The notes under the pieces: model-generated | Databases searched by the model: none | The model's input: only the letters and a program-made list of their open reading frames with translations | Told to the model about the DNA's origin: nothing | Translations under genes and position numbers: made by a program | Assembly: GCA_964585685.1 (NCBI GenBank) | Contig: CAZPEP010000044.1 | Coordinates: 5,458 to 69,457, forward strand | Length of the DNA: 64,000 nucleotides | Direction of reading: 5' to 3' | From: an uncultured Eubacteriales bacterium | GTDB lineage: Bacteria; Acidobacteriota; Aminicenantia; Aminicenantales; Saccharicenantaceae | Shown: in pieces, positions 5,753 to 58,566 of the stretch | Layout: every line of letters begins with the position of its first letter | Numbering within the stretch: position 1 is the stretch's first letter

Positions 5753-5971
5753 GGGCCCTTCCGTTTCCTAAGATATACGAATGATAGCACACTCCGGGAC
5801 GGAGTTTAAGGAGAAAGAACCCCCCGGGGGGGTTGGTGCCGGCTGATGTCAGCAAAAGGGGGGTGATGATTGAAAATTTGAGGGAGCCCTCTCCAGCCGG
5901 CCAAAGAGAGCCATTCCCATTATATCAGAGCCGAAGGCGAACGCAAGAAGAAACGCAGGATATTTTTGTTG

Positions 5972-55002: not shown

Positions 55003-57354
55003 ATGAAACGTTCCCAGGCGAAGAGGAACGGCACGTCGTCGCGCCCGGAAAAGCGCAAGCCGGGCTTGGCCGTCGAGATCGTCGCCGTCCTTATGATCTT
55101 CGTCGGCATCTTCGCTCTCCTCAGTCTGGCTAGCTACAATCACCGCGACCCGTCTTGGGCCAATTCCCTGGAGGCGGGGCACGGCGTGCACAACTACGCC
55201 GGCCGGGCGGGAGCCCATTTCGCCGAAGCCCTGCTCCAGTTCCTCGGACTCATGGCCTTTTTCATCCCCTTCGCCTTCGGGTTCGTCGGGATCAAGGCCA
55301 TTCTCCCCGACGGCCGGTCCCGGCTCGTCGCCCGGACGGTCGGAGTCGTGCTCCTGCTCCTCATCCTCTGCCCCCTGCTCTTCCTCCTTTTCGGGAGCTT
55401 CCCGTGGGGGAAGGCCGAGATCCGGGCGGGAGGGATCCTGGGGGACCTTCTGTCTTCAGCCCTCGTCGGCTACCTGAATCCCACCGGCTCGCTTATTCTG
55501 CTGGCCGCCGCACTCGTCCTCTTTCTCCTGTTCTCCACGCGCTGGTCGCTCGCCCGGACGGCGCGGCTCTCCCGCAAGGCATTCGATTCGGCGTTCCAGA
55601 ACGTCACGATCAAGGTCACCCGTTACCAGAAGACCAAAGAACGGGAGAAGCGACGGGAAAAGGTTGCCAAGAAGTGGGCCGCCGCGGCCGTAACACCCGA
55701 GGAAAAGCCGGACGCCGAGGGAACCGACCGGAAGGAAGCCCGGCAGCTGGAAAAGGAACGGGAGAAAGAGCGGAAACGCCGGGAAAAGGAGGCGAAAAAG
55801 AAGAAGGAGAGGGCTCCCGCCGGCCCGGCCCCCGCCGAGAACCTGCTTTTTCCCGACCTCGGCAAGAAGGGCGATTATAACTTCCCCCCGTTCAGCCTCC
55901 TCGAACCGGGCAAGCCCTCGGAGAAGATCGACAAGAACGAGCTCTACGAGAAGAAGCGGCGGATCGAGGATAAGCTCAAGGAGTTTGACGTGGCCGGCGA
56001 GGTTCGCGAGTACCACCCCGGCCCGGTTATCACGACCTACGAGCTGTTCCCCGACCCCGGCATCAAGGTCTCCCGGGTGGCCAGCCTCACCGAGGACCTG
56101 TCCCTCGCCCTCGAGGCCGAGTCGGTCCGCATCCAGAGGATCCCGGGCAAATCCTCTCTCGGCGTCGAGATCCCCAACAACAAGCGCGAGGTCATCAAGC
56201 TCCGGGACATCATCCAGTCGGAGAAGTTCCTGAATTCGCAATCGAAGCTGACGATCGCCCTGGGCAAGAACGTCCACGGCGAGGTCTACATCACCGACCT
56301 GGCCATCATGCCCCATCTCCTGATCGCCGGGGCCACAGGGTCGGGAAAGAGCGTCGCCCTCAACGCGATCATCGCCAGCATCCTTTACAAAGCAACGCCG
56401 GACGAGGTCAAGCTCCTCCTCATCGATCCCAAGCGGCTCGAGTTCTCGCTCTACGAGGGCATCCCCCACCTTCTGGCGCCGGTCATCAACGATCCGAAGA
56501 AAGCGGGCTTCATCCTCTTCGACGCCGTCCGGAAGATGGAGGAGAGGCTGCGTCTCCTCGGCCAGATGAAGGTCCGGGACATCACCCAGTTCAACAAGAC
56601 CGTCGAGCAGACGCTCCAGGAAAAGAAGGGGAAGCTGACCGAGGAGGAGAAGAAGATCCTCAAGCCCCTCCCCTACATCGTCATCATCATCGACGAGCTG
56701 GCCGAGCTGATGATGGTCAGCGCCCAGGAGGTCGAGAGCAGCATCACCCGCCTGGCCCAGCTGGCCCGGGCCGTCGGCATCCACCTCGTCATGGCCACCC
56801 AGCGGCCCTCGATCGACGTCATCACCGGGACGATCAAGAACAACTTTGGCTGCCGCATCGCCTTCCGCGTCCCGTCCAAGATCGACTCCCGGATTATTCT
56901 CGACGGGGGCGGCGCCGACAAGCTGCTCGGCCTCGGCGACATGCTCTTCCTGCCGCCGAACTTCCCGCGCCTGATGAGGCTCCACTGCGCCTATATCTCT
57001 ATTCCCGAGGTCAAGAGGCTCGTCAAGTTCGTCAAGGAGCAGGGCACGCCCGAATACGACGAGCGCATCGTCGAAGCCGTCAAGGGCGACATCGACCAGC
57101 TCTGGGAGGAGTTCGGGGAAAAGGACGAACTCTACGACAAGGCCCTCGAGCTCGTGCTCCTCACGGGCCAGGCCTCGGCCTCGTACCTCCAGCGACGCCT
57201 GAAGCTTGGCTACGCCCGCGCGGCGCGGATCATCGACCAGATGGAGAACGACGGGGTCATCGGCCATTCCGAGGGCAGCAAAGCCCGGGAGATCCTCGTC
57301 GACGCCAAGTCCTACCTAAAGGACAATGTGCGTCGCCAGCCCCGCAACGAATGA
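55003..57354 (+). CDS. ftsK: DNA translocase FtsK
   Basis: N-terminal TM domain. Pro/Lys/Glu-rich linker. Motor domain with Walker A GATGSGKS. C-terminal gamma (winged-helix) domain. Confidence 0.9.
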   Translation: MKRSQAKRNGTSSRPEKRKPGLAVEIVAVLMIFVGIFALLSLASYNHRDPSWANSLEAGHGVHNYAGRAGAHFAEALLQFLGLMAFFIPFAFGFVGIKAILPDGRSRLVARTVGVVLLLLILCPLLFLLFGSFPWGKAEIRAGGILGDLLSSALVGYLNPTGSLILLAAALVLFLLFSTRWSLARTARLSRKAFDSAFQNVTIKVTRYQKTKEREKRREKVAKKWAAAAVTPEEKPDAEGTDRKEARQLEKEREKERKRREKEAKKKKERAPAGPAPAENLLFPDLGKKGDYNFPPFSLLEPGKPSEKIDKNELYEKKRRIEDKLKEFDVAGEVREYHPGPVITTYELFPDPGIKVSRVASLTEDLSLALEAESVRIQRIPGKSSLGVEIPNNKREVIKLRDIIQSEKFLNSQSKLTIALGKNVHGEVYITDLAIMPHLLIAGATGSGKSVALNAIIASILYKATPDEVKLLLIDPKRLEFSLYEGIPHLLAPVINDPKKAGFILFDAVRKMEERLRLLGQMKVRDITQFNKTVEQTLQEKKGKLTEEEKKILKPLPYIVIIIDELAELMMVSAQEVESSITRLAQLARAVGIHLVMATQRPSIDVITGTIKNNFGCRIAFRVPSKIDSRIILDGGGADKLLGLGDMLFLPPNFPRLMRLHCAYISIPEVKRLVKFVKEQGTPEYDERIVEAVKGDIDQLWEEFGEKDELYDKALELVLLTGQASASYLQRRLKLGYARAARIIDQMENDGVIGHSEGSKAREILVDAKSYLKDNVRRQPRNE

Positions 57355-57381
57355 AGTGCCCTCCTGCCCTCCGCCAATCCT

Positions 57382-57524
57382 AAATCCCCATTTTTTCAAA
57401 AATCCCCCAATAGTCCCCCTTTTTCAAAGGGGGATACTGATGAGGTGTCCACCTTTTTTATAGGGGTTAGGGGGGACTTAGTAGCTACCCCCCTTTGTAA
57501 AAGGGGGGCTGGGGGGATTTAATT
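57382..57524. repeat. Nested G5/C5 palindromic element with two GC hairpins, overlapping the HD-GYP stop codon
   Basis: Hairpin 1: TCCCCC-TTTTTCAAA-GGGGGA (57414..57434). Hairpin 2: CCCCCC-TTTGTAAAA-GGGGGG (57488..57508). Outer inverted repeats AAATCCCCC (57400..57408) / GGGGGGATTT (57511..57520) and AGTCCCCC (57412..57419) / GGGGGACT (57471..57478). Confidence 0.5.
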
Positions 57525-58292
57525 GACCGAGGGGAGCAGACCGGGAAATCGGACATCGGTCCGAGCCTGGCGCCAGGAGGAGACGGGGATGGACAGGAAT
57601 ACGTCCACGACGGCGGGATCGAACTGCCTGCCGCTTGCTCTTCCGATCTCCCGGAGGGCCTCCTCGAAGCGCCACCCCTTGCGATAGGGACGGTCGGAGG
57701 TGATGGCATCCAGGGTGTCGGCCAGGGCGAAGACCCGGGCCACGAGGGGAATGCTCCGGCCGGCGAGCCCGCGCGGATAGCCCGTGCCGTCGAACCGCTC
57801 GTGGTGACAGAGAATGATCTCCCCGGCCTCCTCCAGGAAACCGAGCCCCTCGGTCATTTTGTAACCAAGGACGGGGTGCTCCCTGACAATCTCCCTCTCG
57901 ATGGCGGTCAGGGCGCCGGGTTTGTTCAGGATGGAGGCGGGCACGCCCGCCTTCCCTATGTCATGGAGGAGGGCGCCGCGTTCTATGCCCGCCAAGGTCC
58001 GGTGATCCCGGATTCCCATGGCGTCGGCCAGGATGGACGCATAGGCGGCCACGAACCGGGAATGCCCGTCGGCTTCCCCTCCTCCGGCTTCGGCCGCGAG
58101 GAGCCCGACCAAGCGGGAATTGAAGAACGTCCCGATGCCGGATGGACGGGAGGCGCGGGATCCGCTCCGGTCCCCGGATTCCCTACCGCCGGGTTCCGCC
58201 GGCGGCGCGGACGGGAACACGTAGAAATAGGTCCTGAGTCCGTTCGCGTCTTCCAAAACGAGCCGTTTTTCCCTGTCCATCATCCCGATCAT
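57519..58292 (-). CDS. HD-GYP domain c-di-GMP phosphodiesterase
   Basis: HDIGK ... GYP-type metal-dependent phosphohydrolase motifs (LLHDIGKAGVP, ILCHHERFDGTGYP). Confidence 0.85.
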   Translation of the reverse strand: MIGMMDREKRLVLEDANGLRTYFYVFPSAPPAEPGGRESGDRSGSRASRPSGIGTFFNSRLVGLLAAEAGGGEADGHSRFVAAYASILADAMGIRDHRTLAGIERGALLHDIGKAGVPASILNKPGALTAIEREIVREHPVLGYKMTEGLGFLEEAGEIILCHHERFDGTGYPRGLAGRSIPLVARVFALADTLDAITSDRPYRKGWRFEEALREIGRASGRQFDPAVVDVFLSIPVSSWRQARTDVRFPGLLPSVN

Positions 58293-58566
58293 CTCACGTT
58301 TCCCTTTTTTCTCCGGGAGCGCTCAAAAGGCTCCGGCGCTCAAGCAGGGGCCCCAGCCGGCGATCGGGCTGGTTTCGACGAGTTCGAAGCCGTCCTCCCT
58401 GAGCCGTGTCTCGATGTAAGAGCAGAATTCCTGTTCGTCCCTGATCACAACACAGTCGCGTTCCCGGGGGCCTTTCGAAAATTCACTTTCGATCATGGGC
58501 ATCCGTCCTTTCATCGAGCAATAGGTTAGTCGGGGGATAGGGCGGAAAATTGACGGAAATCCAGGC

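Follow-up and report, generated by a model that had tools for sequence, protein, structure and literature searches.

Repeats called BoxC or PIT elements were reportedly treated by Bergler in 1992 and by Hoyne and Maher in 2000. Renamed TM_ECO, they have since been described as always intergenic (Holder et al. 2015, PMC4666352), and as members of a class in which a pyrimidine arm, a loop, a purine arm, a 3-nt loop and a second purine arm make a purine-motif intrastrand triplex possible (PMC4666352). TM_ECO copies fall into two types, A (TTA) and B (CCG), every inverted pair joining one of each, and their loci vary strongly between strains, including through a "palindrome effect" in which a pair collapses to a stem-loop (PMC4666352). 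They showed no tie to mobile elements or gene function, and earlier work had found neither promoter nor terminator activity in TM_ECO/PIT elements (PMC4666352). Here we describe a palindromic cluster at positions 57381-57524 of a 64-kb stretch of contig CAZPEP010000044.1 (the window, meaning the whole stretch of DNA analysed), lying between the convergent genes ftsK and an HD-GYP-type gene. We consider it probable that this cluster is a group of three BoxC/PIT-class repeats, arranged like a bacterial interspersed mosaic element (BIME), and that it is most likely selfish or neutral non-coding DNA, not a terminator.

An earlier note on this DNA, made from the letters alone, had described two near-identical C/G hairpins bracketed by two further inverted-repeat pairs, with an extra half-site and an overlap with the HD-GYP stop codon. 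Both hairpins are present where it placed them (hairpin 1, 57415-57433, CCCCCTTTTTCAAAGGGGG; hairpin 3, 57488-57508, CCCCCCTTTGTAAAAGGGGGG), each with a perfect 9-bp stem and a 3-nt loop (-8.9 and -9.9 kcal/mol as folded DNA), and both bracketing pairs are 100% complementary (AAATCCCCC at 57400-57408 with GGGGGATTT at 57512-57520; AGTCCCCC at 57412-57419 with GGGGGACT at 57471-57478). The half-site AAATCCCCA occupies 57382-57390, and the AAATCCCCC/GGGGGGATTT arms do reach into the HD-GYP stop codon (TTA, 57519-57521), which falls within GGGGGGATTTAA at the right end of the third unit. The nested arrangement did not stand: each bracket supplies the third arm of a separate three-arm unit, and the cluster makes better sense as a ~34-nt unit present three times (U1 to U3, with U1 and U3 intact) than as a single nested hairpin. 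The note had also overlooked a third, decayed copy at 57449-57479, in which a repeat finder placed a third, decayed hairpin (57449-57467) and which belongs to a region where it also reported the direct repeats GGGGTTAGGGGGGACTTA and GGGGGCTGGGGGGATTTA.

Read from its sharp end, the unit consists of AAAT-C5-6, a spacer of 2-6 nt, C5-6TTT, a 3-nt loop and AAAG5-6. Three arms make it up: the pyrimidine arm C5-6TTT; the purine arm AAAG5-6, which is its Watson-Crick complement; and, 2-6 nt further on, a third arm (G5-6ATT) that mirrors the purine arm. U1 (57400-57434, + strand) has the sharp end, its AAAT-C arm, first on the plus strand, while U2 and U3 are inverted. The complement of the U1 third arm, AAATCCCCC (57400-57408, +), is followed by a long, AT-rich spacer, AATAGT (57409-57414, +), and by the hairpin CCCCCTTT-ttc-AAAGGGGG (57415-57433, +); the G-rich, triplex-capable strand of U1 is the minus strand, ATCCCCCTTT-gaa-AAAGGGGGAC-ta-TTGGGGGATT, running from 57435 to 57401. 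U3 (57488-57520, - in model orientation) is of the short-spacer type and reads CCCCCCTTT-gta-AAAGGGGGG-ct-GGGGGGATT(T) on the plus strand, its ATTT end overlapping the HD-GYP stop codon. The decayed U2 (57449-57479, -) reads CCACC-TTTTTTATA-GGGGT-TA-GGGGGG-ACTT on the plus strand, with the same arm order as U3; it was recognised from direct-repeat families D1 (79%) and D4 (78%) and folds with -3.4 kcal/mol. To the left of U1 lies a decayed partial unit (57381-57399, +; TAAATCCCC plus ATTTTTTCAAAA), which includes an 18-nt stretch missing from the otherwise matching left end of the same junction in a relative (locus L004).

The cluster stands out from the rest of the window. The hairpin pattern gave seven overlapping matches over the whole window (0.74 expected), six of them in the cluster, and G6 runs, which are scarce window-wide (62 vs 155 expected), occur four times within 57470-57516; no second site like it was found in the remainder of the 64 kb. 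The individual strong hairpins reach -8.9 to -10 kcal/mol as DNA, yet the fold of the region as a whole was unexceptional against dinucleotide shuffles (z -1.9 and -1.5). A single nested hairpin spanning the entire element was rejected as the functional fold on this energy and on the finding that solo units are the commonest state of the family.

With BoxC/PIT/TM_ECO repeats the window units share a three-block architecture with a second loop of 2-6 nt and the triads G*G:C, A*A:T and T*A:T, a length of ~34-36 nt, an intergenic position and the absence of terminator anatomy. They likewise share a division into two types by the second loop (AT-rich vs G/C), often in inverted pairs, and loci that are hypervariable in close strains, where a pair can give way to one stem-loop. 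A sequence-agnostic triplex finder (arms of 7-10 nt, the three triads above, at most one mismatch per interaction) returned TM_ECO no. 9 at precisely the coordinates published for it, and in the window it reported U3, with 9/9 triads triplex-compatible (6 G*G:C, 1 A*A:T and 2 T*A:T), and U1 (minus strand, with arms of 10 nt inside the permitted mismatch); across the rest of the 64 kb it gave only two weak 7-nt candidates. Parsed in this way, the conserved AAAT end corresponds to the ATT of the third strand. Measured against the ITxF criteria of Holder et al. 2015 (three blocks with at most one mismatch, stems of 6-15 nt, loops of 1-6 nt), U3 and U1 both have the three blocks, with arms of 9-10 nt, a first loop of 3 nt and a second loop of 2 nt in the finder's parse, U1 having by visual parse the 6-nt spacer AATAGT in place of the 2-nt second loop. 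Both lie between the ftsK and HD-GYP stops, with the final 2 nt overlapping one stop; they represent the two types (AT-rich AATAGT spacer in U1, short CT spacer in U3); and the locus is hypervariable, with ten distinct spacer lengths and, in relative L003, one stem-loop with the same ends.

The three-arm anatomy, together with the mirror rule, thus fits the class definition, and the arms follow purine-motif triplex (mirror-repeat) rules, so that by their sequence they are a potential intrastrand triplex. The letters differ: window-type arms read C5-6TTT / AAAG5-6 / G5-6ATT, vs CCCTCNCCC / GGGNGAGGG / GGGNGAGGG in TM_ECO, and the narrow TM_ECO pattern CCCTCNCCC-N3-6-GGGNGAGGG-N3-GGGNGAGGG is accordingly not matched by the window's C6T3 / A3G6 / G6ATT; what the two have in common is the class, not the sequence family. 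Host range differs as well, since BoxC/PIT/TM_ECO repeats were described in E. coli and other Proteobacteria whereas window-type units occur in ~15 phyla, and mixed-type pairing, invariable in TM_ECO, holds for 19/30 pairs in the window-type family. The window element is, then, a member of the known intrastrand-triplex class, with new letters and a much wider host range.

The breadth of this family emerged from a scan of 596 Gb of species-representative genomes with the composite pattern TCCCCC-N1-8-CCCCCTTTT-N1-3-AAAGGGGG (23 specified bases), which matched more than 119 genome stretches where, by our own arithmetic, fewer than one was expected by chance. Among the matches listed there are ~15 phylum-level groups judged by record title, including Desulfobacterota, Nitrospirota, Omnitrophota, Chloroflexota, Cyanobacteria, Patescibacteria and Deinococcota, as well as Beta- and Gammaproteobacteria represented by isolates of Lysobacter, Pseudoxanthomonas, Iodobacter and Chromatium. 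Also among them is an Aminicenantes metagenome-assembled genome (MAG; L080) with four units at an unrelated locus, and some other genomes carry 2-5 or more units per 8 kb. A near-identical 34-nt version across ~15 phyla is unusual among small bacterial repeats. Conservation extends beyond the letters of the pattern: the three bases before TCCCCC, which lay outside the search pattern, are A in 142-151 of 154 distinct units, whereas position -4 is random; the sixth stem pair covaries (TCCCCC...GGGGGA vs CCCCCC...GGGGGG); spacer subtypes track taxonomy; and arm lengths covary, with 5/5/5 in 78 units and 6/6/6 in 37 (115/187). In subfamilies with asymmetric arms, the third arm mirrors the purine arm and is no direct copy of it (AAGGAGGGG to GGGGAGGTA in L060), which excludes a simple alternative-hairpin reading.

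A covariance model (R1), built from 147 units of other phyla with the window's lineage and L080 left out, was run as an unfiltered search of the window; its E-values are rough because calibration was shortened. It returned only 57481-57526 (U3, 45 bits, E 3e-9) and 57394-57441 (U1, 39.5 bits, E 7e-8), the next-best being a partial match at E 2.8 with no further full-length match below E 3.9; U2, too decayed to score, was not detected at E<10. Judged by this model and by their letters, U1 and U3 are members of a cross-phylum AAATC5-N-C5TTTT-NC-AAAG5 unit family. Across 835 kb of motif-bearing loci there were 179 units, arranged as 73 solo units, 29 inward pairs, 21 outward pairs and 6 tandem pairs. 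In inward pairs the AAAT ends face one another with 4-41 nt between model ends; 10/21 outward pairs are a single hairpin with both extra arms, and the rest are two hairpins, as in the window. By spacer type (AT-spacer vs short-spacer), 19 pairs were mixed, 8 BB and 3 AA, a tendency and not an absolute rule. Units adjoin unrelated genes in many phyla, upstream positions included.

Searches of other resources did not return the element. Rfam gave nothing at gathering score over the whole window, and at relaxed stringency (E up to 10, 57300-57600) only chance-level matches, the best being U4atac at 29.9 bits vs a threshold of 53 bits. By BLAST the element had no plasmid match, and among phages only 35-nt chance matches in coding genes; in the literature, the unit sequence and its would-be peptide (PPLxKGG) led only to NF-kB sites, barcodes or nothing. 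A phage vector for the cross-phylum spread was considered and was not supported: units occurred in 100 IMG/VR stretches, DUF559 relatives (the nuclease family discussed below) in just one. The unit-bearing IMG/VR loci (L206-L285) may be true phage or host flanks of prophage calls. In L080, the mosaic spacer beside the four units (300-800) contains several copies of the small repeats GTAGCCTCAGGCTTTAGCCTGAG and GACGCAGACTAAAGTCTGCGGCTACAA.

At the ftsK/HD-GYP junction itself, gene order is kept across relatives and the spacer is not. Junctions were fetched through FtsK homologues of 78-93% identity, and the lengths given here lie ~3 nt above the pure stop-to-stop spacer. A JGI contig (L001), 99.5% identical over 16.5 kb, carries an identical element, so that the window and L001 (FtsK 100%) share a 167-nt spacer with three units. 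The shortest spacers are those of L006 (FtsK 78%, 15 nt, CCCCGGCCGGGG), L307 (90%, 22 nt, small G/C stem-loop), L003 (89%, 37 nt, one unit, ATCCCCC-GAT-CCCCCCTTTTCTCAAAGGGGGG-ATC) and L311 (79%, 43 nt, small G/C stem-loop). At the other end, unrelated inserts occupy the junctions of L309 and L312 (90% and 93%, 355 nt), L308 (90%, 368 nt) and L310 (90%, 397 nt); L004 (91%, 386 nt) has the window's left and right units with extra partial units and unrelated DNA, and L005 (88%, 572 nt) retains nothing of the cluster but its outermost ends, AAATCCCCC and GGGGGATCT, with a different insert between them. The position of the HD-GYP stop codon, inside GGGGGGAT(C/T)TA, is common to the window, L003 and L004. 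Variable spacers at a fixed gene order mark the junction as an indel hot spot in which units are patchily present, and this hypervariability, with the collapse of a pair to a stem-loop, agrees with the instability of TM_ECO loci (PMC4666352). The 18-nt partial duplication at 57381-57399 (compared with L004) and the single stem-loop of L003 may be examples of slippage, duplication and collapse.

Several observations concern the junctions of relatives in their own right. The alternative insert of ~350-570 nt (L005 12370-12935; L308 3862-4226; same junction in L309, L310 and L312) has inverted repeats of its own (e.g., GGTTCTTCTCCAGATTCCGGGG), with blocks common to L005 and L308, and three contigs with identical FtsK differ at internal insert hairpins by 13- and 42-nt indels; Rfam found no match in the relatives' junction inserts. 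Within the 386-nt spacer of L004 (12620-12745), a strong Shine-Dalgarno sequence, GGAAGGAGGAG, precedes a 22-codon open reading frame (ORF), MVSNDHSRNQKWRLGGLVTPPL, which runs into the right-hand unit and may be due to chance. A Logan contig identical to the window (L002), which comes from an independent short-read assembly, ends at 57492, inside hairpin 3, a break that would fit a palindrome or repeat impassable to de Bruijn assembly.

The position of the cluster exactly between two convergent stop codons invites comparison with intrinsic terminators at convergent gene ends, which likewise place a G/C-rich stem-loop there, and the earlier note had proposed a bidirectional terminator complex. 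Such an element, or a 3'-end stabiliser, would block RNA polymerase or 3' exonucleases at the ends of ftsK and HD-GYP transcripts; the strong hairpins (-9 to -10 kcal/mol as DNA) favour it, as does the small G/C palindrome that the unit-less relatives L006, L307 and L311 keep in their spacers. We regard this explanation as unlikely, since neither strong hairpin precedes a U-tract on either strand. A scan for G/C-rich stem-loops with a U-run (5 or more U in 8) starting 0-2 nt downstream retained neither C/G hairpin on either strand and only the weak 57432-57450 stem with its T6. This stem-loop (GGATACTGATGAGGTGTCC then ACCTTTTTT, 57432-57459, + strand, that of ftsK) is the sole terminator-like site of the element, would serve ftsK and speaks on the side of a terminator, but it folds as DNA with only -2.8 kcal/mol (z -0.9), and has as its T-run the loop of the decayed U2. 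Among 154 family units, the bases 3' of the stem are purine-rich, with T at +2 in 18/154, and on the other strand the stem is followed by the spacer, the G-run and ATTT. The conserved extra arm and AAAT end would be needless in a terminator, units occur in many contexts, including upstream of genes, and the E. coli relatives, PIT/TM_ECO, are reported to lack terminator or promoter activity (PMC4666352). A locus-specific regulatory site or small RNA gene, such as an operator array or a cis-antisense RNA, could draw on the (A/G)TCCCCC half-sites repeated ~11 nt apart, start to start, and on the identity of the cluster in the strain 99.5% identical overall. We hold it very improbable: relatives that keep the gene order and have FtsK of 88-93% identity lack the element or carry something else in its place, the same unit sits beside unrelated genes in many phyla, and the Rfam searches gave no family at gathering score and only chance-level relaxed matches.

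Of the four readings in the earlier note, a REP/MITE-like dispersed palindromic element comes closest and is partly supported: the dispersed cross-phylum palindromic repeat, in alternating orientations and with two spacer types, was found, whereas the tag and transposase of repetitive extragenic palindromic (REP) sequences, and the target duplication and parent insertion sequence (IS) of miniature inverted-repeat transposable elements (MITEs), were not. Like REP, BIME and REPIN sequences, window-type units are short, G/C-rich imperfect palindromes that are intergenic, form alternating clusters and fall into two subtypes; like bacterial MITEs, the window element is small, non-coding and palindromic overall, and its presence at the site is polymorphic. 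A strict REP/REPIN or MITE, moved by an HUH transposase of the REP-associated tyrosine transposase (RAYT) type or by an IS-encoded DDE transposase, would account for these BIME-like traits, for the sharp left boundary, for presence or absence among close relatives and for the Logan contig break inside hairpin 3. This strict form nevertheless seems quite improbable to us. No GTAG or CGTC tag marks the unit boundary family-wide (the boundary is AAA|TCCCCC, random beyond, and the GTAG at 57481-57484 of the window is not conserved in the family), and no transposase or RAYT cluster was found among the ORFs of 119 motif loci (8 kb per locus), where a parent IS was likewise not seen. The flanks of the window cluster (...TTTTTTCAAAA | AAATCCCCC ... 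GGGGGGATTT | AATTGACC) show no target-site duplication, a check that the earlier note had proposed, and alleles with differing interiors share their left and right ends, which in-situ turnover fits better than repeated insertion. REPs are, moreover, species-specific and lineage-specific, whereas this unit is nearly identical across phyla and has a third, mirror arm; and, unlike MITE terminal repeats, the units are self-folding, three-armed and also found singly. The note's further suggestion of a G-quadruplex (G-rich strand) or i-motif (C-rich strand) rested on G- and C-tracts, and there are indeed four G-tracts at 57463-57516 on the plus strand. Their loops would measure 3, 27 and 2 nt, and within the long loop lies the C6 arm, which is the pairing partner of one tract; units most often occur singly (73/179), with only two G-tracts per strand; and a triplex, unlike a quadruplex, accounts for the mirror symmetry and for the conserved TTT, AAA and ATT parts. 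The note thus chose the wrong non-B structure, the arms fitting purine-motif triplex rules, and of the explanations considered we give this one the least credence. Protein binding, its remaining suggestion, is plausible in the form of binding by a DUF559 nuclease.

That nuclease family was the sole exception when 3,522 ORFs from the 119 motif loci were clustered all against all, the other clusters being generic families (histidine kinases, ABC ATPases, SDR). DUF559 proteins of 120 aa (Pfam E 1e-31 to 2e-35) are encoded at four motif loci of different lineages (L042 777-1216; L027 931-1419; L046 3339-3771; L060 2340-2794), in each case exactly between an inward unit pair. A motif-independent test used 80 metagenome loci (L126-L205) fetched by DUF559 protein similarity alone, which represent a YcjD-like subfamily seeded from the motif loci and not all DUF559 proteins. 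With a hidden Markov model of the canonical unit, an inward unit lay within 100 nt upstream in 45/76 loci, downstream in 35/69 and on both sides in 26/65, at a median distance of 12-13 nt, with only 2 and 2 in the wrong orientation and a background of 0.12 units per kb. With the triplex finder, motifs were found upstream in 58/76 and downstream in 52/69, vs 17/1,868 control windows, that is, bracketing in ~75% vs 0.9%, or ~80-fold. The third arms (G-run plus ATTT) of the bracketing units face the gene, and the motif letters change with the DUF559 lineage, divergent proteins carrying CTCCCC/GGGGAG or CCCTCTCCC/GGGAGAGGG. At L060 (5100-6300), ~274-bp tandem repeats, each bounded by an inward unit pair and containing a DUF559 fragment (residues 26-72), look like decayed, amplified cassettes. 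The third-arm GGGGGA was considered as a Shine-Dalgarno sequence for DUF559 and set aside, because the median of 13 nt from the model's 5-nt flank to the protein match, ~18 nt from ATTT, is too far for this to hold generally. In one DUF559 subfamily (L136, L142, L148, L155, L186, L195) the unit-gene-unit cassette is nested in a further inverted repeat, which suggests layered palindromes: L136, L142, L148 and L186 have both arms, GGCATAAGCGCTAACTTAA ... TTAAGTTAGCGCTTATGCC, flanked by CCTCCCCC/GGGGGAGG arms, in L195, whose contig stops 9 nt beyond the gene, the upstream arm alone is visible, and in L155 the downstream arm alone.

In E. coli K-12 the only DUF559 gene identified is ycjD, which adjoins a published BoxC/TM_ECO copy. 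Its product is 41% identical to one metagenomic DUF559 protein, and its 3' flank carries CCCTCGCCCCTCTGGGGAGAGGGTTAGGGTGAGGGG, the copy catalogued as TM_ECO no. 9 (Holder et al. 2015, PMC4666352); this identity links the window family to the BoxC/PIT class. At this locus (L306 5041-5840; NC_000913.3 1351040-1351839), the hairpin with BoxC-like letters in which ycjD ends is succeeded by a duplicated fragment of ycjD's own 3' end and then by TM_ECO no. 9, and a perfect 17-bp inverted repeat lies just upstream, overlapping the start codon. The gene is accessory: of 5,426 complete E. coli genomes, 3,378 carry it. We take K-12, IAI1, W, 55989 and BL21 to belong to phylogroups A, B1 or C, and CFT073, UTI89, IHE3034, S88, SE15 and JJ1886 to belong to B2. 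ycjD occurs in phylogroups A, B1 and C and is elsewhere replaced by eefRABCD (PMC12817139); TM_ECO copies number 13-30 in K-12, IAI1, W, 55989, BL21 and others, 1-2 in CFT073, UTI89, IHE3034, S88, SE15 and JJ1886, and 6-15 in strains that we assign to D, E or F (PMC4666352 tables). High counts with ycjD (13-30) and low counts in ycjD-less B2 (1-2) fit a link, on few independent contrasts; O157:H7 retains 11 TM_ECO copies without ycjD.

DUF559, Vsr and the homing endonuclease I-Bth0305I form one PD-(D/E)XK clade (PMC3424549), I-Bth0305I being a Vsr-like (EDxHD) homing endonuclease (PMC3239194). The nearest solved structure to the DUF559 proteins is N. gonorrhoeae 3HRL. Like Vsr-like homing endonucleases, the DUF559 loci have a small putative nuclease gene embedded in sequence that it perhaps recognises; unlike I-Bth0305I, the DUF559 proteins are free-standing at 120 aa, without NUMOD or helix-turn-helix domains and outside introns and inteins. 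Like REP/RAYT loci, they consist of one protein-coding gene bracketed by an inverted repeat pair, the bracketed gene encoding a Vsr-like PD-(D/E)XK nuclease where REP/RAYT has an HUH tyrosine transposase and the repeats bearing no GTAG/CGTC tag. We tentatively propose, as a possibility somewhat short of an even chance, that BoxC/PIT-type repeats, the window units included, act in cis for a selfish system whose driver is a small DUF559 nuclease. In such a system the nuclease gene would lie between an inverted motif pair with third arms facing it and letters co-varying with the nuclease lineage, and gene-less pairs and solo units, among them the window cluster, would be targets, trans-mobilised copies or decayed cassettes. 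It would parallel REP/RAYT, or else a free-standing homing endonuclease. The literature we searched held no paper linking DUF559/ycjD with BoxC or triplex repeats, which is not proof that there is none; the association is strong, apparently undescribed, and offers a new lead beyond the window. The selfish-system reading, if true, would account for how a repeat class without known function since 1992 arose, spread and came to be locally unstable, and if the link between nuclease and repeats is causal, the 30-year-old question of the nature of BoxC/PIT elements becomes directly testable with one small protein and a 35-nt oligonucleotide.

For the window, reading the cluster as structure-prone repeats follows from the absence of terminator activity in PIT elements, the hypervariable junction and the indifference of units to neighbouring genes. 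It replaces two tempting but unsupported annotations, bidirectional terminator and G-quadruplex, with a concrete class, that of intrastrand-triplex repeats. We infer that the cluster would be tolerated where harm is small, at the 3' ends of two convergent genes, and that any effect would come through structure rather than information. DNA made single-stranded by replication, repair or transcription may fold into a hairpin or triplex and cause polymerase stalling and slippage, which could yield local duplications, deletions and collapse; turnover of this kind is our proposed cause of the hypervariable spacer among close relatives. Seeding of the units would probably be tied to the DUF559 nuclease cassettes that such motifs bracket elsewhere. 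A TM_ECO triplex was seen in vitro for a single strand (PMC4666352).

Several points weigh against this account. The TM_ECO triplex was absent in duplex DNA and by in vivo dimethyl sulfate (DMS) footprinting (PMC4666352). By a crude test, open frames of 150 codons or more contain 47% of units (vs 89% of random sites), so "always intergenic" is not established for the family, and subfamily inheritance, as opposed to a structural constraint, may account for part of the covariation in arm length. Many copies per genome is a trait of the class; here units occurred at a single locus of the 64-kb window, and the ~90 kb of orthologous sequence taken from relatives gave no other. Within the source genome the unit is therefore a putative repeat, perhaps of low copy number. 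No DUF559 gene is present in the window or in the relatives' loci, and tblastn for a DUF559 remnant in the window cluster or the 386-nt spacer of L004 was negative. Finally, the cluster may incidentally stabilise the 3' ends of ftsK or HD-GYP mRNAs.

Of the two flanking genes, ftsK, encoding a DNA translocase (55003-57354, + strand; stop TGA 57352-57354), was assigned from its ORF and translation, and on L001 its product has the Pfam domains FtsK_4TM, FtsK_alpha, FtsK_SpoIIIE and FtsK_gamma; a database protein (P0001) matches the window FtsK exactly, and the nearest named organisms by FtsK are Acidobacteriota/Aminicenantes MAGs. The HD-GYP-type gene (57519-58292, - strand) has HHERFDGTGYP in its translation and Pfam HD_5/HD matches on L001. 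The spacer between the two measures 164 nt and is AT-richer than the window (62% G+C). In another intergenic region of the window (5753-5971), a C6/G7 palindrome, AACCCCCCGGGGGGGTT (5818-5834), occurs with a further G6 run; this region does not match the unit model. Directly upstream of the HD-GYP gene lies an ORF of 57 aa (58323-58496, - strand) with no Pfam match, and it is also called in those orthologous loci that have gene calls (55 aa in L006).

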